Origin: a virus
Taxonomy: Duplodnaviria; Heunggongvirae; Uroviricota; Caudoviricetes
IMG/VR virus record: IMGVR_UViG_3300015214_000024
Location: 265,787-329,786 of that record
Direction: 5' to 3' (one strand)
Length of the DNA stretch: 64,000 nt
In this document: positions 15,204 through 49,126 of the stretch, one piece after another
How positions within the stretch are numbered: the stretch's first letter is position 1
Layout of the letters: each line of letters opens with the position of its first letter
Notes under the pieces: model-generated
Told to the model about the DNA's origin: nothing
What the model saw: only the letters and a program-made list of their open reading frames with translations
The model's database searches: none
Program-made: the position numbers and the translations under genes

Positions 15204-15383
15204 TTAGTCGAGAAGGAAATTTTGAAGATTCGATTTTAAAGCTTGACGAATGCTTCGTCTAATTTGACGATTCGCCATTCTACGCAACTCTGCTCTATCT
15301 TCTGGGTCAGCTGATTGGAAATCGATCTTTGATCTATAGTCTTTTTCAAAGTCGTGGACGTATTTCATATTAATCTGTGTCAT
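15204..15383 (-). CDS. small basic hypothetical protein
   Basis: AGGAG RBS before ATG 15383. Confidence 0.5.
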   Translation of the reverse strand: MTQINMKYVHDFEKDYRSKIDFQSADPEDRAELRRMANRQIRRSIRQALKSNLQNFLLD

Positions 15384-24364: not shown

Positions 24365-24480
24365 TGGTGCGGCCGGTAGGGATCGAACCTACAAACCGGG
24401 GAACATTACACGAAATGTATCAACCCGGGGCTGTTCAAACAAGTTTGACAGTCGTGTCTGCCTTATTTCACCACGGCCGC
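24365..24480 (-). ncRNA. tRNA-Leu-like RNA with 13-nt anticodon loop and hyper-extended variable arm
   Basis: GCGGCCG/CGGCCGC-A-CCA acceptor, Leu-type D arm, GTAGG-TTCGATC-CCTAC T arm; own TTGACT-N17-TATATT promoter. Confidence 0.75.
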
Positions 24481-31848: not shown

Positions 31849-32351
31849 TCCTGTTCTTCTTTAATAACTTCTTTCAAAGCGAGTTCTACAAATTGATCGA
31901 TTGAAATTCCACGAAGTGCAGCAGCAGCTTCGAGCATTTCCTTAACATCGTCATCAAGTTCCAAAGTTAAAACAACCCTCGGGTCATATTCTTCACCTTT
32001 AGGTATTTTCGTAACTTTGTCAATAATGTCGTCAAAATCATCAGTCATATGCCAATTGAGATCTTCACTAAATTCATCCCATTTGATATTACGCTGTTTT
32101 GCTTCTTCCTTATAAGCATCTAAATAGTCCAAGTCAATCCACCTGTAGCGGAGTTCACCTTCATAAGTTTCGCTGATTGAAATTTCATATATTTGCTGTG
32201 TTTGAGTATCAAAAACTGCGCTAATATGAAAATTATCATCTGAACTATCAAGGAATCGTGCATTTGGACCAAAACATTTCCAAAGGAATTCACTTCCGTC
32301 AGTAATTTTGAAATCAATTGCTTTTGTGAAAGCTTCCATTTGTTTTGACAT
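31845..32351 (-). CDS. hypothetical protein with C-terminal ribbon-helix-helix-like segment
   Basis: GGAGG RBS; LELDDDV...AA.RGISIDQFV. Confidence 0.6.
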   Translation of the reverse strand: MSKQMEAFTKAIDFKITDGSEFLWKCFGPNARFLDSSDDNFHISAVFDTQTQQIYEISISETYEGELRYRWIDLDYLDAYKEEAKQRNIKWDEFSEDLNWHMTDDFDDIIDKVTKIPKGEEYDPRVVLTLELDDDVKEMLEAAAALRGISIDQFVELALKEVIKEEQE

Positions 32352-32554
32352 TAGATTGCCTCCAAACAATGCTCAGTGATTGAAACAGCCTTCCAGCCAT
32401 CGCCATATCCATTGTTATATGGCGTATCCAGTTCTACGATGAACACTGTCATACCAGGAGCGTCAAATGCCACTCCGATTGTGGAACCTTTAATACCATC
32501 CATGTCACCGCCAGTACGAACAAGCTTAACACGCTGATTAGGTGAGAATTTCAT
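32351..32554 (-). CDS. small SH3/KOW-like hypothetical protein
   Basis: AAGGA RBS; F.PNQRVK...G..G. Confidence 0.5.
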   Translation of the reverse strand: MKFSPNQRVKLVRTGGDMDGIKGSTIGVAFDAPGMTVFIVELDTPYNNGYGDGWKAVSITEHCLEAI

Positions 32555-32577
32555 TTTCAGTCCTTTCGATTATGTTG

Positions 32578-32661
32578 CGGAGTAGTGGGGATTCGAACCC
32601 CATACCTTGCGGTACCCTCTGTTTTCGAGGCAGTGTTAGAACCTATCTAATTACGTACTCC
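32578..32661 (-). tRNA. tRNA-Ser(CGA), 8/4-type with bulged acceptor stem
   Basis: GGAGTA(C)GT/ACTACTCC-G, 5-bp D stem TTAGA/TCTAA, loop CT-CGA-AA, long V arm, 4-bp T stem GGGG/CCCC; CCA not encoded. Confidence 0.7.
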
Positions 32662-32892
32662 AAAATTGTCAACCAGTTTTACTAATTCTTTTTCAGCCAA
32701 ATACATTTCAACTTTAGTATTGTAAAACCTTAATATTTCTTTATTAAAATTATCAATTCCATATTTTTCAATAGCATATCTTATTCTTTTACCAGAACCC
32801 ATATAACCATCATCGAGATTTTTAGTCGAATGGGCACCAATGTAAAACTTACCATTTATTTGGTTTGTTATTTTATAAACATAGTAAAACAT
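32647..32892 (-). pseudogene. truncated Seg-like GIY-YIG homing endonuclease
   Basis: YYVYKITN..NGKFYIG.H...DDGYMGSG; only 81 aa, runs into the tRNA. Confidence 0.7.
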
Positions 32893-32930
32893 ATTTTCAA
32901 ATCCGGCGCGCTTGTCCGGTCAATCTTCCA

Positions 32931-33122
32931 TTAGTGTGAATATCTACATTCACTTATGCTATCACATTCAAATCCTGGAGCACCACAAATTGAACAGTCA
33001 AGCTTGGTTTGTCTAAACCATTCCTTTTTGCCGTTATGTGGATTGATTTCACAATAAAGTTCATTAATCCTGCCTGGTGACTTGAATGATCCAAACAACC
33101 AACTTAGCACTTTACCAAACAT
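32931..33122 (-). CDS. small Cys-containing hypothetical protein
   Basis: AAGGAG RBS, own promoter. Confidence 0.45.
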   Translation of the reverse strand: MFGKVLSWLFGSFKSPGRINELYCEINPHNGKKEWFRQTKLDCSICGAPGFECDSISECRYSH

Positions 33123-33171
33123 AGCATCTCCTTTCCTTTCTGTCTATAAAGGAAGAAATGAAATATGTCAA

Positions 33172-33263
33172 TGGCGGACAGTGAGGGATTTGAACCCTCG
33201 GAACCCCTTACGAGGTTCGGCACATTAGCAGTGTGCTGGTTTTAGCCACTCACCCAACTGTCC
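33172..33263 (-). tRNA. tRNA-Ser(GCT), canonical 7/5
   Basis: GGACAGT/ACTGTCC-G-CCA; GCACA-CTGCTAA-TGTGC; long V arm. Confidence 0.95.
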
Positions 33264-33271
33264 ATAAAATT

Positions 33272-33361
33272 TGGAGGAAGACGGGATAATCGAAATCCAC
33301 ACCATATTTCAGGTGCCCACTCCTTAGCAGGGAGGTCCAGAACCTTTCTGGTTCATCTTCC
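33272..33361 (-). tRNA. tRNA-Ser(GCT), 8/4-type, U73
   Basis: 8-bp GGAAGATG/CGTCTTCC, T-CCA, D stem CCAGA/TCTGG, CTCC-CTGCTAA-GGAG, 4-bp T stem GGAT/ATCC. Confidence 0.85.
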
Positions 33362-33368
33362 ATATATA

Positions 33369-33484
33369 CAACAAAGACAGGATTCGAACCTACGTGGTCC
33401 CAGGGCGTCAAATTAATTTGTCCGGATCCTAAGACCATCCCGCTTCTGGGCGGGCTACCTTAAACCTATCTCAGCCACTTCATT
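33369..33484 (-). ncRNA. tRNA-Ser-like RNA with 6-nt anticodon loop and hyper-extended variable arm
   Basis: AATGAAG/CTTTGTT-G, Ser-type D loop, CCCGC-CCAGAA-GCGGG, 10-bp TGGTCTTAGG/CCTGGGACCA V stem, GGTTCGAATCC. Confidence 0.6.
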
Positions 33485-33488
33485 GTAT

Positions 33489-33579
33489 TGGAGGAGCCGT
33501 GGGTACTCGAAACCCATACCGTTTTTTAGGTATCAACCGCTTTCCAGGCGGTGGTTGCGCCCTGGCAACTAACGACTCC
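33489..33579 (-). tRNA. tRNA-Ser(GGA), 8/4-type, U73
   Basis: GGAGTCGT/ACGGCTCC-T-CCA, D stem GTTGC/GCAAC, ACCGC-CTGGAAA-GCGGT, T stem GGGT/ACCC. Confidence 0.85.
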
Positions 33580-33585
33580 GCAAAT

Positions 33586-34257
33586 TTAAACTACTGTTCT
33601 TCCTTTATACCATCCTATTGGAATTACCATATCCTTTTTAATTTTCTGGTTTTTAGATCCGTCAGTAATCCACATAGTTCCGAATTGTGAATTTTTCCTT
33701 CCAGTTTGGAAGCCATCATTTTTTTCTTTCCATTTTTTAATAGCACTATCAGATTTAGATAATTTACTAAATTCTTTAGCTTTTTCTGGATTCAAGCTAT
33801 GGAATTCTTTCATAGCTTCAGAACCTTTAACCCATCCTTTACATTCCACAAACCGCAATCTTGCTTTTTCAAGTATCCATTCATAACCTGGTTTACCAAA
33901 TGGTGAAATAAATTTATTCCATTCTGCCTTAGTTTCAAATCCTCGATCTTTGTAATAAGAGCCTTCTAAGTTGTATATTGTAAAGCCACCAGTTCCGCCA
34001 AGCATTAAATTATAAGTATTGTTATCTTTTACAAAATCTTCGTTAACTATTTCACGTTCTTTATTATTCATATCATTTTCATTATCAAAAATATATAATG
34101 TTTCTTTATCAAAGTTTTTTATTCCATATTTTTCTATAGCAGATTTTATTAATTTTCCTGAACCCATATAGCCATCATCTAAATCATCAGTAATATGCTT
34201 GCCAATATAGATCTTACCATTTAGTTTGTTTGTTATTTTGTAAATTATATTAAACAT
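33586..34257 (-). mobile_element. Seg-like GIY-YIG homing endonuclease inside the tRNA array
   Basis: IIYKITNKLNGKIYIGKH...DDGYMGSG...YNL..GG; true start ATG 34257 (the upstream in-frame part is tRNA). Confidence 0.85.
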
Positions 34258-34277
34258 AAAAATCCATTCAATTTTTG

Positions 34278-34364
34278 AGGACAGTGTGGGATTCGAACCC
34301 ACGGGACCCTCGCAGGTCCTCCGGTTTTCAAGACCAGTGCAATCGGCCACTCTGCCAACTGTCC
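34278..34364 (-). tRNA. tRNA-Ser(TGA), canonical 7/5, U73
   Basis: GGACAGT/ACTGTCC-T; CTGGT-CTTGAAA-ACCGG; long V arm. Confidence 0.92.
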
Positions 34365-34372
34365 ATATATTT

Positions 34373-34461
34373 TGGCGGAGGGTAGGCGGAATCGAACCCC
34401 TGACCTTACGGTTCCACTAGTTTTCAAAACTAGGTGTGCATCCCCGGCACAATTACTCTCC
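34373..34461 (-). tRNA. tRNA-Ser(TGA), 8/4-like
   Basis: GGAGAGTA/TACCCTCC-G-CCA (one mismatch), D stem TGTGC/GCACA, CTAGT-TTTGAAA-ACTAG, bulged T stem. Confidence 0.8.
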
Positions 34462-34464
34462 AAT

Positions 34465-34490
34465 AAAAAACCCCCTAGTTTCCTAGGGGG
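34465..34490 (-). terminator. attenuator terminator immediately 5' of the tRNA-Ser array
   Basis: CCCCCTAG-GAAA-CTAGGGGG-TTTTTT ending 3 nt before the first tRNA. Confidence 0.9.
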
Positions 34491-34524
34491 TGTAACAGCA
34501 AACCTATCATTCAATAGATACTGT

Positions 34525-34572
34525 TCACCCCATTGGGATGGACGAACTACTGGATGATGAAATAATGAACAT
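34525..34572 (-). promoter_or_regulatory. serine leader peptide MFIISSSSSSSIPMG (transcription attenuator)
   Basis: AGGA RBS; TCA TCA TCC AGT AGT TCG TCC; alternative 1:2, 2:3 and 3:4 helices; TTGACA promoter at 34631-34636. Confidence 0.9.
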
Positions 34573-34665
34573 TCGTTTAATCTTTCCTGTTTGCTTTAAC
34601 TTTGTTCAGCTTATATTCTATTTAGTATTCTGTCAATAGTAAAATAATAAAAATTCTGATTTATT

Positions 34666-35304
34666 TTATGACCAATATTCATATAAACCAGACTGCATAG
34701 TATCCAGATATTCATCCCGGACACCGAAAAACTTAGCCAAATATCTTACCAACAAAGGTGTTGGAGGGGCGAATCGATCGATCAAATCCTCTTTGGAAAA
34801 ATCAATTATATCACCATTTTCCATTGTGATTGATTGCTTAACGTCACGAAACAGCCTAATTGCTTCTGATTTAACCTTTTGTCCATTTGGTATGTATGTC
34901 ATTTTACCGTGCTCATATGGATAAATCCCATATGGAATATATTTGAATGACGGTTCCATACCATAATCATTATTCAAAACTGAATTATAGTAATCCATTG
35001 AATCATTATATCGGTGCCAATCAGGCATACCAATATGGGTAAAAAGCATTATATTAGATAAGCCAGTTTCAGTTTGGTAACTCACAAACTGACTCATATA
35101 TGCTGATAAATTTTGTTTGTGCCCATCGCGCCAATAAAGTCTCATTTCAATATCTGAATCATCTTCAATCAGACGCAGAAAGGTATTAAAGTCAGAAATT
35201 TGGGTTTCAAGAGCATATTCGTACTGGTCCCAATCAACTCTCGGGTCGCGATCCACGATATTATGAAAACCGTAACCTAATACTTTATGAATCTTAAAGC
35301 CCAC
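34666..35304 (-). CDS. hypothetical protein
   Basis: GGGGGA RBS before GTG; 212 aa. Confidence 0.6.
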   Translation of the reverse strand: MGFKIHKVLGYGFHNIVDRDPRVDWDQYEYALETQISDFNTFLRLIEDDSDIEMRLYWRDGHKQNLSAYMSQFVSYQTETGLSNIMLFTHIGMPDWHRYNDSMDYYNSVLNNDYGMEPSFKYIPYGIYPYEHGKMTYIPNGQKVKSEAIRLFRDVKQSITMENGDIIDFSKEDLIDRFAPPTPLLVRYLAKFFGVRDEYLDTMQSGLYEYWS

Positions 35305-35353
35305 AAACTTCCCCCATTTTCTTATCCTCTAATAGCAGCTTTGTATTTTAATG

Positions 35354-36598
35354 TCAAAGGATAATTCGATCTGGAAAATATGGTTGAAGTATTTCAGGTA
35401 TTGCCACCCAGCCATCTGGCTGTTGATAATTTTCCAAAATAGCTACAAGAGTCCGACCAACAGCCAATCCGCTACCATTTAATGTATGGACCAAAGTAGT
35501 CTTTTTATCTCCTGGCAGCTTTACTCGTGCGGCCATACGTCGGGCCTGAAAATCGCCACAATTGCTGATCGAGCTAATTTCACGCCAAGCCTTTTGGCCC
35601 GGAAGCCAAACTTCCAAATCGTAAGTTTTTCTGGCGCCAAATCCCATATCACCCGCTGCTAATAAAACTCGCCTAAATGGTAAATCAAGTTTCTTAAGAA
35701 TCATTTCCGCAGCATTCAGCATATGCTGATGTTCATATCCGCTTTGGTCTGGAGTAGAAATGGTTACCATTTCTACTTTATGGAATTGATGTTGGCGTAT
35801 GAGCCCGTGAGTGTCTCTACCAGCACTGCCTGCTTCGGCCCTAAAGCACGGTGTTAGTCCAACCATACGCAATGGTAAATCACCATAATCCAAAATTTGA
35901 TTGGCAACCAAATTTGTCATTGGCACTTCGCCAGTTGGGATCAAATATCGACCATCTACGGTTTTAAACAAGTCCTCTTCAAATTTTGGAAGCTGACCGG
36001 TACCAAACATCGTTTGCTGATTCACCAAATAAGGAACATCTACTTCAGTAAAACCATATTCCTCAACGTGATGGTCAATCATAAACTGACCAATCACTCG
36101 GTGCAATTTAGCCAATGTGCCAGTCATCACATTAAAGCGAGTCCCTGCGATTTTTGTTGCTTGTTCAAAGTTAAATCCTGGAAGAAGGTGATGCTCTTTG
36201 ATTTCAAAATCAAATTCAGGAATGTCATCCTGATGTACTACAAGATTATTTTCCTCACCACCTTCTGGAACATCGTAGTGTGGAATATTTGGTACCTTAG
36301 CCCAAATGCTATCACGAACATCTTTCAACAAATCAACATTTTTCTTATAATGATCAATTTGCTCATTAGTTGCTTTTGCTTGTTCTTTCAGATCTTCAGC
36401 AGGTAATTTAAGCCTGTATGCATCACCAATTGCTTTATTAAGGTTGTTTCGTTCATTTTCAGCAGCTTGCAACTTTGTTGTATAAAGACGAAATTGCTCA
36501 TCAGCCCAAAACAAATCGTCAATTGCTCCTCCGCCGCGCCCCTTTAATGCACGTTTTACGGCTTCGCGATCAGTTCTGACATCATCAATATTAATCAT
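35354..36598 (-). CDS. serS: seryl-tRNA synthetase
   Basis: N-terminal coiled coil, GTGQLPKFEEDLF, LIPTGEVP, FRAEAGSAGRDT.GLIRQHQF.KVE, EISS.SNC.DFQARR, TLNGSGLAVGR. Confidence 0.97.
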   Translation of the reverse strand: MINIDDVRTDREAVKRALKGRGGGAIDDLFWADEQFRLYTTKLQAAENERNNLNKAIGDAYRLKLPAEDLKEQAKATNEQIDHYKKNVDLLKDVRDSIWAKVPNIPHYDVPEGGEENNLVVHQDDIPEFDFEIKEHHLLPGFNFEQATKIAGTRFNVMTGTLAKLHRVIGQFMIDHHVEEYGFTEVDVPYLVNQQTMFGTGQLPKFEEDLFKTVDGRYLIPTGEVPMTNLVANQILDYGDLPLRMVGLTPCFRAEAGSAGRDTHGLIRQHQFHKVEMVTISTPDQSGYEHQHMLNAAEMILKKLDLPFRRVLLAAGDMGFGARKTYDLEVWLPGQKAWREISSISNCGDFQARRMAARVKLPGDKKTTLVHTLNGSGLAVGRTLVAILENYQQPDGWVAIPEILQPYFPDRIIL

Positions 36599-46750: not shown

Positions 46751-46780
46751 ATCCAATATTATATAATAATATTGTATGTG

Positions 46781-46853
46781 TGGAGAATATCGGGCTCGAA
46801 CCGATCACCTCTTGAATGCAAATCAAGTGCTCTCCCAGATGAGCTAATTCCCC
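46781..46853 (-). tRNA. tRNA-Ala(TGC)
   Basis: GGGGAAT/ATTCTCC-A with G3:U70; CTTGA-TTTGCAT-TCAAG. Confidence 0.95.
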
Positions 46854-48710: not shown

Positions 48711-48739
48711 AGAAAAAGCAGCCTAAGCCGCCTTTTCTG

Positions 48740-48965
48740 TTAAATTCTGTTGCTAGGTTTTAACTACCCCGGCAGGCTGCTTACGCAGCAAGAGCCATAA
48801 CTGTATTATCATTGTCAGTTATTTTATTTAGTAACTTGTCTCGAGATTCTTACTTCTTGCACGTCGATCCTGGTTCAGGCCCTAAAAAGGTTTCCAGTAT
48901 TGCCACCGGTTGGTGGACCTGCCGGGTTCCGCCCCCGGGTCCGCTACAGCGTTCATTCACTGTCA
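48740..48965 (-). ncRNA. ssrA: two-piece (permuted) tmRNA, tag (A)DNDNTVMALAA
   Basis: Acceptor piece ...CCGGGGGCGGAACCCGGCAGGTCCACCA (ends 48911), intervening segment, coding piece GGGCCTGAACCAGGATCGAC from 48882 (G3:U), tag ORF 48816-48781, terminator 48712-48737. Confidence 0.93.
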
Positions 48966-49126
48966 TCAACTTGTTACAACATATTTATACAACATATCTA
49001 AATATGCTGTCAAGAACTATCTTCACATTAAGCTTACCTCGCCGGCAAGATTAATCTCAGCAAACAAAGGATTGTCACCCAATGCTAATGTATAAAAATA
49101 GTTCTTGACAGAATATTTAATATGAT

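Follow-up and report, generated by a model that had tools for sequence, protein, structure and literature searches.

Why would a phage devote a block of six serine tRNA (tRNA-Ser) genes, built on two different scaffolds, to a single amino acid? We investigated this question in a 64,000-nucleotide (nt) stretch of viral DNA (hereafter the window; bases 265787-329786 of a 455,147-base IMG/VR virus record rated complete by CheckV), in which the block starts 893 bases after the end of serS, a gene for seryl-tRNA synthetase (SerRS). Two of the six genes are of the canonical 7/5 type, and the other four have an acceptor stem of 8 base pairs (bp) and a T stem of 4 bp (8/4). Judged by its sequence, the array is a real, conserved operon of a jumbo-phage clade that unites a published non-canonical tRNA family with two tRNAs of cellular type. 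We consider it probable, at roughly two chances in three (0.68), that the block is a phage serine-decoding operon in which ordinary serine acceptors stand behind a serine-codon attenuator. What is new here is the arrangement and its control, not the shape of the tRNAs.

All serine tRNA genes of the phage lie in one block

ARAGORN found 69 tRNA genes in the 455-kb phage genome, and Rfam gave 76 tRNA matches, 72 of them above the family cut-off. The plus strand from 180 to 262 kb of the record holds nearly all of the tRNA genes, and none of those there is a tRNA-Ser. The tRNA-Ser genes form one minus-strand block of six at window positions 32577-34461 (anticodons UGA twice, GGA, GCU twice and CGA), and a search of the whole genome with ARAGORN, Rfam and the 8/4 covariance model described below found no tRNA-Ser outside it. 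In the order of transcription the genes are:

34373-34461, minus strand: tRNA-Ser(UGA), 8/4-like; G73, CCA encoded; called by ARAGORN; 8/4 model 79 bits
34277-34364, minus strand: tRNA-Ser(UGA), canonical 7/5; U73, no encoded CCA; called by ARAGORN; Rfam tRNA 55.2 bits
33489-33579, minus strand: tRNA-Ser(GGA), clean 8/4; U73, CCA encoded; 8/4 model 99 bits
33272-33361, minus strand: tRNA-Ser(GCU), clean 8/4; U73, CCA encoded; 8/4 model 88.8 bits
33172-33263, minus strand: tRNA-Ser(GCU), canonical 7/5; G73, CCA encoded; called by ARAGORN; Rfam tRNA 55.7 bits
32577-32661, minus strand: tRNA-Ser(CGA), 8/4; G73, no CCA; called by ARAGORN at a lowered threshold; 8/4 model 81 bits

A sequence-only reading of the window had described six intact tRNAs, all for serine and with these anticodons, and ARAGORN, Rfam, hand folding and the 8/4 model confirmed it. 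The sequence also agrees with that reading on U73, carried by three genes (7/5 UGA, 8/4 GGA and 8/4 GCU, with G73 in the other three), and on the four genes with 8-bp acceptor, 4-bp T and 5-bp D stems; of these four, UGA and CGA are each bulged. Its forecast that the 8/4 genes would score poorly, or as selenocysteine tRNA (tRNA-Sec), was borne out. At default settings ARAGORN called four minus-strand genes (34461-34373 UGA, 34364-34277 UGA, 33579-33489 GGA and 33263-33172 GCU); CGA (32661-32577) appeared at the lowered threshold only, and the GCU gene at 33361-33272 was missed by ARAGORN and Rfam alike, hand folding giving a clean 8/4 cloverleaf. Rfam called just the two 7/5 genes as tRNA. Its tRNA-Sec model scored 8/4 UGA at 36.2 bits and 8/4 CGA at 31.4 bits, for a cut-off of 47, and no Rfam model reported 8/4 GGA or 8/4 GCU in the scan of the window.

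Covariation supports the 8/4 fold

The hand fold of 8/4 GCU has an 8-bp acceptor stem, 2 linker bases, and D, variable and T stems of 5, 5 and 4 bp; a fifth T pair is impossible (U opposite C) and the eighth acceptor pair is G-C. For GGA, the ARAGORN drawing itself shows eight acceptor pairs and four T pairs. In UGA the acceptor stem is interrupted by an A.C mismatch and a G bulges from the T stem; in CGA a C bulges from the acceptor stem, and the anticodon stem contains C.A and A.A mismatches. Across the four 8/4 genes the 5-bp D stem is 100% paired, the D loops measure 5-7 nt, the variable stems 4-5 bp, and the discriminators are U, U, G and G. The two GCU copies, one of each shape, have identical anticodon loops (CUGCUAA), and both 7/5 genes share the acceptor stem GGACAGU/ACUGUCC.

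Because MAFFT alignments placed a gap in the acceptor stem of the 8/4 genes, we seeded a covariance model from the GGA gene alone with the 8/4 structure, and the other genes were then realigned. This GGA-only model gave the other three 8/4 genes 55, 45 and 34 bits and the two canonical genes about 19 bits. Pairing holds in 94% of the stem cells of the four 8/4 genes, and both partners vary in 17 of the 27 pairs. At the eighth acceptor pair, two genes have U-A, one has A-U and one has G-C.

We looked for the wider family by scanning IMG/VR with a 3'-half pattern and scoring the matches with the four-gene 8/4 model, which yielded more 8/4 tRNA-Ser genes in eight further phage contigs. With the orthologs of related phages the set comprised 35 genes from 12 phage loci. 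In this set 94.7% of the stem cells are paired, and both partners vary in 25 of the 27 pairs; none of 500 shuffles matched the observed values, and partners slid by 1-3 columns paired at only 39-46%. The eighth acceptor pair is formed in 33 of the 35 genes, and a competing fifth T pair would be possible in 13. All 35 have a serine anticodon and a long variable arm, and none has UCA; the discriminator is U73 in 17 and G73 in 18. G1-C72 and G2-C71 never vary, A3-U70 occurs in 33, and the GG of the D loop and the UUCGA of the T loop are kept. The published serine identity features are a long variable arm and G73 or U73 (PMC5389517), and the 8/4 genes match these, as expected of serine acceptors.

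The top pair of the anticodon stem (27-43) is non-standard in 18 of the 35 genes, and the CGA lineage keeps C.A or U.U beside the loop (positions 31-39). Such pairs may be a family trait rather than decay.

Some phages carry the 8/4 genes in other company. In one complete 166-kb phage, which has no SerRS, the four 8/4 isoacceptors are the sole tRNA-Ser genes of the 41-gene tRNA cluster; this phage is one of five other phage records with 8/4 serine genes in which no class II synthetase core was found; some of the 8/4 sets in these synthetase-free records carry U73. Another contig (L067) mixes 7/5 UGA and GCU with 8/4 GGA and CGA.

A serine-codon leader precedes the first tRNA gene

The region ahead of the array contains, in the order of transcription:

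34608-34636, minus strand: promoter-like site, TTGACA, 17 nt, TAAGCT, read from the sequence
34525-34572, minus strand: leader open reading frame (ORF) MFIISSSSSSSIPMG, 15 codons, with seven consecutive serine codons TCA TCA TCC AGT AGT TCG TCC
34486-34540, minus strand: alternative pairings, 1:2 (CAUCCC with GGGGUG) and 2:3, the antiterminator (GGGGUGAACAG with CUGUUACACCCC)
34462-34491, minus strand: intrinsic terminator directly before the first tRNA, stem CCCCCUAG/CUAGGGGG of nine pairs (six G-C) followed by a U run

ViennaRNA gave -7.7 kcal/mol for the 1:2 pairing, -23.0 for 2:3 and -16.2 for the terminator. The stop codon of the leader lies inside GGGGUGAACAG, which is segment 2, and the 3' strand of the 2:3 pairing, CUGUUACACCCC, overlaps the 5' strand of the terminator, which was the only convincing minus-strand terminator call in 32300-35400. 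At the promoter site a scan with consensus promoter elements listed only an overlapping, weaker pair.

The same elements stand ahead of the array in three related phages (L124, L125 and L127, described below). The -35 TTGACA is kept at the same place, segments 1-3 are kept, and the terminator stem varies with compensation. Their leader ORFs (MFIISSSSSSSIPLG, ..IIISSSSSSSIPQG and MFILSSSSISSSIPWG) have seven serine codons each, uninterrupted in two and split by one Ile codon in L127, and UCN and AGY codons are always mixed. In the window phage, MFIISSSSSSSIPMG is the only convincing short ORF rich in serine codons in the whole genome. We rejected a second candidate leader, MISSSSSSRSSSL at record position 445618, which has no terminator after it and whose TCT/TCA-rich stretch resembles the reverse strand of an acidic coding run.

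The leader thus has every feature, at the level of sequence, of a classic ribosome-mediated attenuator, and control of the array by serine-codon attenuation is the most likely reading. Such attenuators are known from amino-acid operons and pheST (the trp, his, leu, pheA and pheST leaders; PMC1183508, PMC3082878). As in those, a leader ORF holds a run of regulatory codons and its stop lies inside segment 2, and there are mutually exclusive antiterminator and terminator hairpins and a U run. The known cases control biosynthetic or synthetase genes, whereas the genes here are tRNA genes cognate to the leader codons, and in a phage. A limited literature search found no published case of a leader-peptide attenuator ahead of tRNA genes.

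The array is conserved among related phages

The SerRS proteins of the relatives are 81% (L124), 71% (L125/L126) and 69% (L127) identical to that of the window, and all these loci are syntenic with it. L124, L125 and L127 keep all six genes in the order of the window (8/4 UGA, 7/5 UGA, 8/4 GGA, 8/4 GCU, 7/5 GCU, 8/4 CGA), with one or two small ORFs between 7/5 GCU and 8/4 CGA, and U73 is fixed in the same three of six genes across all four phages. The arrangement described in the sequence-only reading (a complete set of tRNAs for decoding serine, built on two scaffolds, together with an attenuator and serS close by) is therefore present in the window and kept in three relatives.

In both scaffolds, the orthologs in the array show numerous compensated differences in their stems. 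In L124, L125 and L127 the stem changes of 7/5 UGA are compensated; the L127 ortholog of 8/4 UGA has an unchanged T arm and compensatory changes in the D, anticodon and variable stems; and the last acceptor pair of CGA, U-A in the window, is C-G in L127. Some of the genes look mosaic: the GGA gene of the window shares its anticodon and variable arms with the relatives and differs in acceptor stem and D arm; the D stem of its orthologs has 3 bp only.

Four further elements lie inside the array of the window phage:

33586-34257, minus strand: putative GIY-YIG (Seg-like) homing endonuclease gene; PHROG 314, E 2.5e-36; Pfam SegE_GIY-YIG
33369-33484, minus strand: tRNA-like element of 116 nt, not intact as a tRNA; its anticodon loop has 6 nt and its variable arm is very long
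32931-33122, minus strand: ORF of 63 amino acids (aa) between GCU and CGA; no Pfam or PHROG family, with similar-sized ORFs there in the relatives
32647-32892, minus strand: remnant of a GIY-YIG catalytic domain, 81 aa; PHROG 314, E 1.8e-30; Pfam SegE_GIY-YIG 36 bits

The place of the endonuclease gene (34257-33586) is taken by about 125 bases in L124 and about as little in L125 and L127, which leaves no room for such a gene and marks it as a probable insertion. The 116-nt element, which scores 21 bits with the Rfam tRNA model (below the cut-off), likewise finds no room in the relatives, where the gap between GGA and GCU is 8-10 bases. Both appear to be insertions present in the window phage only. 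By our reading of the sequence, the final 15 bases of the endonuclease remnant overlap the CGA tRNA.

A second tRNA-like element lies at 24368-24480 on the minus strand. The two elements span 113-116 nt. In both, the T arm and the acceptor stem are intact, the anticodon region is abnormal and the extra arm is very long; the T-arm motif is all that they share.

A second promoter-like site is found in the region 33146-33118 (minus strand), just 3' of 7/5 GCU and ahead of the 63-aa ORF, the endonuclease remnant and CGA. By eye it reads TTGACA, 17 nt, TATAGA; the scan gives TAGACA..TATGTT. Since it precedes CGA, this gene may be transcribed apart from the attenuator.

L123, the closest relative found (89% SerRS identity), has a HisRS-type gene after serS, then His, Glu and Tyr tRNAs, and no serine array within 7 kb. 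Two more distant phages (L001 and L002, SerRS 46-49% identical) have no serine array near serS, and the only tRNA-Ser in the L002 genome is one 7/5 UGA gene. Searching GenBank phages by blastn with the region and the single tRNAs returned only homing-endonuclease matches and short tRNA pieces.

The phage synthetase is of ordinary alphaproteobacterial type

Upstream of the leader stand two genes:

35354-36598, minus strand: serS, a bacterial-type SerRS of 414 aa; Pfam Seryl_tRNA_N 56.7 bits, tRNA-synt_2b 134.8 bits
34666-35304, minus strand: conserved ORF of 212 aa that separates serS from the leader and follows serS in all relatives

Both Pfam domains of the SerRS, the N-terminal coiled-coil arm and the class II core, score above their cut-offs. 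Its nearest cellular counterparts are alphaproteobacterial (50-57% identity), and metagenomic phage relatives reach 64-89%. The catalytic blocks FRAEAGSAGRDT.G..RQHQF and GSGLAVGRT are conserved with Alphaproteobacteria, and by these marks the enzyme is of ordinary alphaproteobacterial type. Its one difference in motif 2 is a change of R to H; in this loop its nearest relatives have RDTHG in place of the bacterial RDTRG. This R-to-H change is absent from P0009 and P0011, of which P0009 is the SerRS of L125, a phage with the same U73 array; no motif-2 change is common to the whole phage SerRS clade.

The 212-aa ORF has no Pfam or PHROG family. Its AF2 model (pLDDT 77) gave no fold match (best Foldseek E 0.8; maximum VIA-align Z 3.6, over a 40-residue piece). 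We considered a PSTK-type, tRNA-acting kinase and rejected it, finding no P-loop, no family and Atlas feature scores of at most 0.82.

Around serS the gene order varies. TilS-family and CCA-adding-enzyme genes lie beside serS in the syntenic relatives. A HisRS-type gene stands between the conserved ORF that follows serS and the array in L125 and L127, and is absent there in L124. In the window phage, hisS and two tRNA-His genes lie far off at record 178848-180702 (plus strand), the counterpart of L123:8917-10771. This varying placement of hisS and tRNA genes makes the link between serS and the array a loose one, with synthetases and their cognate tRNAs behaving as movable modules.

The tRNA-His genes after hisS were missed by ARAGORN at default settings and make up a second module of synthetase and cognate tRNAs, located immediately behind serS in L123. 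For the first tRNA-His an 8/4 drawing with A73 is possible, as in Mukai et al. (2017; PMC5389517), and so is a 7/5 fold with a G.U pair.

Two tRNA lineages and the demand for serine codons

In 401 sampled Alphaproteobacteria, the 7/5 GCU gene had matches in 36, at up to 82% identity over its full length and to tRNA-Ser genes, and the 8/4 GCU gene in none. The 8/4 model likewise found no match at E 1e-8 or better in 151 sampled Alphaproteobacteria. By these comparisons the 7/5 and 8/4 genes are shown to belong to two separate lineages. In 217 long ORFs of the phage, TCA accounts for 34% of serine codons and AGT plus AGC for 31%, so the two doubled anticodons, UGA and GCU, match the greatest serine codon demand.

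A model for the probable serine operon

These observations can be put together as follows. Transcription would start at the leader promoter and run through the 15-codon leader with its seven serine codons, which ends inside a four-segment attenuator. With charged tRNA-Ser plentiful, a ribosome would reach the leader stop and cover segment 2, so that the terminator forms and little tRNA is made. Were it to stall on the serine codons, segment 2 would be free to pair with segment 3, no terminator would form, and tRNA-Ser would be transcribed. Such a switch would therefore set the supply of tRNA-Ser by how well serine codons are read. Four of the products would be phage-borne 8/4 tRNA-Ser species, one per anticodon, and two would be cell-type 7/5 tRNAs that double UGA and GCU for the heaviest serine demand. 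What SerRS recognizes is the long variable arm and the first acceptor pairs, not the division into 7/5 or 8/4, so both shapes should be charged by any bacterial-type SerRS, host or phage; serine charging by an ordinary SerRS is most likely, and the phage serS would add charging capacity rather than act as a private partner. From sequence we infer expression and serylation of the genes, the direction of the regulation and a benefit to the phage.

Several points weigh against the serine-operon model. The -10 box of the leader promoter is weak (3/6 matches), and the Shine-Dalgarno sequence is weak and lies 10-12 bases from the leader ATG, a long spacing. CGA is set apart from the other five genes by ORFs and by the possible second promoter, and the attenuator may therefore govern five genes only. 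Two of the four 8/4 genes (UGA and CGA) are irregular, with mismatches and bulges, two genes (7/5 UGA and CGA) encode no CCA, and the T loop of the L125 ortholog of CGA is odd, lacking the usual UUCGA. Finally, dosage leaves unexplained why the extra copies differ in shape instead of being plain duplicates.

Alternative explanations

This last point bears on defense evasion, in which the 8/4 geometry of acceptor, T and D stems would escape a nuclease or modifier, of host or phage origin, directed against canonical tRNA-Ser. Both scaffolds stand side by side in four phages whose SerRS proteins differ by up to 31%, which plain dosage does not require, and the 8/4 family was not found in the 151 and 401 sampled Alphaproteobacteria. 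To our knowledge, no tRNA-Ser-specific defense has been described in the likely hosts, and the phage genome was not searched for one. Phage tRNAs that resist tRNA-targeting defenses are documented for other amino acids (PMC10264068, PMC11464382, PMC11555353), but the published escapes come about by changes of the anticodon loop, not of body shape (PMC10264068). A nuclease that reads the loop would cut both GCU copies, whose loops are identical, and in the complete phage that has only 8/4 serine tRNAs in its 41-gene cluster the 8/4 species back up nothing. We regard evasion as unlikely.

A bolder proposal joins these ideas with the leader: the scaffolds would be functionally specialized, the 8/4 species forming a phage-private channel that is immune to attack or preferred by the phage SerRS, and the leader would gauge the reading of serine codons and top up tRNA-Ser on demand. 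If true, a virus would possess a decoding system for a single amino acid that regulates itself and is partly insulated; we hold this proposal, too, to be an outside chance.

The irregular genes raise the possibility that the array is partly non-translational, with 8/4 UGA and CGA decaying or serving as regulatory or decoy RNAs while GGA, GCU and the 7/5 pair translate. Besides the mismatches and bulges of both genes, CGA lacks CCA and is overlapped by the endonuclease remnant, its L125 ortholog has the odd T loop, and many allo-tRNA(UAU) species were inactive when tested in Escherichia coli (PMC5389517). However, the differences between the window and L127 in UGA and CGA are compensated in the D, anticodon, variable and acceptor stems, and all four phages keep the six genes in order. 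One-base bulges are described for minor 8/4 tRNA-Sec and tRNA-Cys in the same paper (PMC5389517), and a gene for a CCA-adding enzyme is probably nearby, as judged from the homologs beside serS in the syntenic relatives. Decay or decoy function is thus quite improbable.

The sequence-only reading had also proposed a semi-orthogonal pair, in which the phage SerRS would prefer 8/4 tRNAs, U73 or both, the host SerRS would prefer host tRNA-Ser, and a private charging channel would result. U73 is unusual for bacterial tRNA-Ser, and its fixation in three of six genes in all four phages, the position of serS only 893 bases from the array and the RDTHG loop of the nearest SerRS relatives would all fit. 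This proposal found no support. The RDTHG change is missing from P0011 and from P0009, although the phage of the latter (L125) has the same U73 array, and the alphaproteobacterial motifs of the enzyme are kept. 8/4 sets are also carried by phage records in which no class II synthetase core was found, and some of these sets include U73. The link to serS is loose, with hisS between serS and the array in L125 and L127 and no serine array within 7 kb in L123. SerRS is itself tolerant, being reported to accept 7/5, 8/5, 9/4, 8/4 and 9/3 tRNAs, and allo-tRNAs insert serine in E. coli (PMC5389517). A private pair is accordingly very unlikely.

Recoding, with some array tRNAs charged with an amino acid other than serine, is most improbable: the shape resembles tRNA-Sec, two genes weakly match its model and the genome has two tRNAs with a CUA anticodon, but all 35 family members have serine anticodons (none UCA), the invariant G1-C72 and G2-C71 and a long variable arm, and their acceptor branch has 12 bp, against 13 in tRNA-Sec. 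A tRNA-Sec identity (RF01852) was rejected on the 12-bp branch in place of 13 bp (8/5 in bacteria), the serine anticodons and the scores of 36.2 and 31.4 bits, below the cut-off of 47.

Elsewhere in the record, the two CUA-anticodon (amber) tRNAs, which ARAGORN labels 'Pyl', lie at 15281-15358 and 165512-165586 (plus strand), and their presence prompts one to ask whether part of the phage uses read-through or recoding of TAG. Three U73 tRNAs of 85-88 nt, also on the plus strand, combine long variable arms with non-serine anticodons: CUU (Lys), GCG (Arg) and UUG (Gln), at record positions 212426-212513, 212846-212930 and 223905-223989. The CUU tRNA begins with GGAC, like the 7/5 serine genes. 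All three could be SerRS substrates of the missense allo-tRNA kind.

Comparison with known systems

The 8/4 tRNA-Ser are the serine-anticodon subgroup of the (8/4) allo-tRNAs of Mukai et al. (2017, Nucleic Acids Res 45:2776; PMC5389517). The likeness extends to the 12-bp 8/4 branch, the long variable arm, the long D stem, G73 or U73 and the serine anticodons. As described there, such genes also occur in phage tRNA clusters, including those of phages of Alphaproteobacteria, in agreement with the sequence-only reading, and they are poorly found by standard tRNA finders and look Sec-like to covariance models. Here, by contrast, four isoacceptors stand in a fixed order, interleaved with two 7/5 genes, behind a serine-codon attenuator and with serS nearby; where the main text of PMC5389517 was searched, none of these three (fixed interleaved order, leader attenuator, nearby serS) was found.

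Like other huge or jumbo phages with large tRNA sets and synthetases, this phage encodes at least 69 tRNA genes, SerRS, IleRS, a release-factor-domain protein and a transfer-messenger RNA (tmRNA). It differs in that its serine tRNAs are placed outside the main tRNA island and on the opposite strand, in what is predicted to be a separately regulated block. The release-factor-domain ORF (36980-36591) and the IleRS gene (31743-29188) are the neighbors of the block. Further away on the minus strand are the tmRNA (48736-49017; permuted, alpha-type or alphaproteobacterial, 91 bits) and a lone tRNA-Ala(UGC) at 46780-46853, which shares its strand with the serine array.

The putative homing endonuclease has a counterpart in T4, whose SegB is a GIY-YIG homing endonuclease in the tRNA gene region. 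In both cases a Seg-like GIY-YIG gene is flanked by phage tRNA genes, and close relatives may have it or lack it. Unlike the T4 case, a second copy here is reduced to its catalytic domain.

What the array means for phage decoding

Standard annotation pipelines pick up between two and four of the six serine tRNAs, and counts of what huge phages can decode are therefore too low. Engineering of tRNAs may find candidate parts in the 8/4 bodies that carry U73, and the array offers a natural system for comparing the treatment of 8/4 and 7/5 tRNAs by SerRS, EF-Tu, processing enzymes and defenses. If the leader works as a switch, it would extend attenuation from amino-acid and synthetase genes to tRNA genes, and into viruses. 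For the phage clade itself, both body plans for the same anticodons have been kept over a long divergence, and this retention suggests that selection maintains both.

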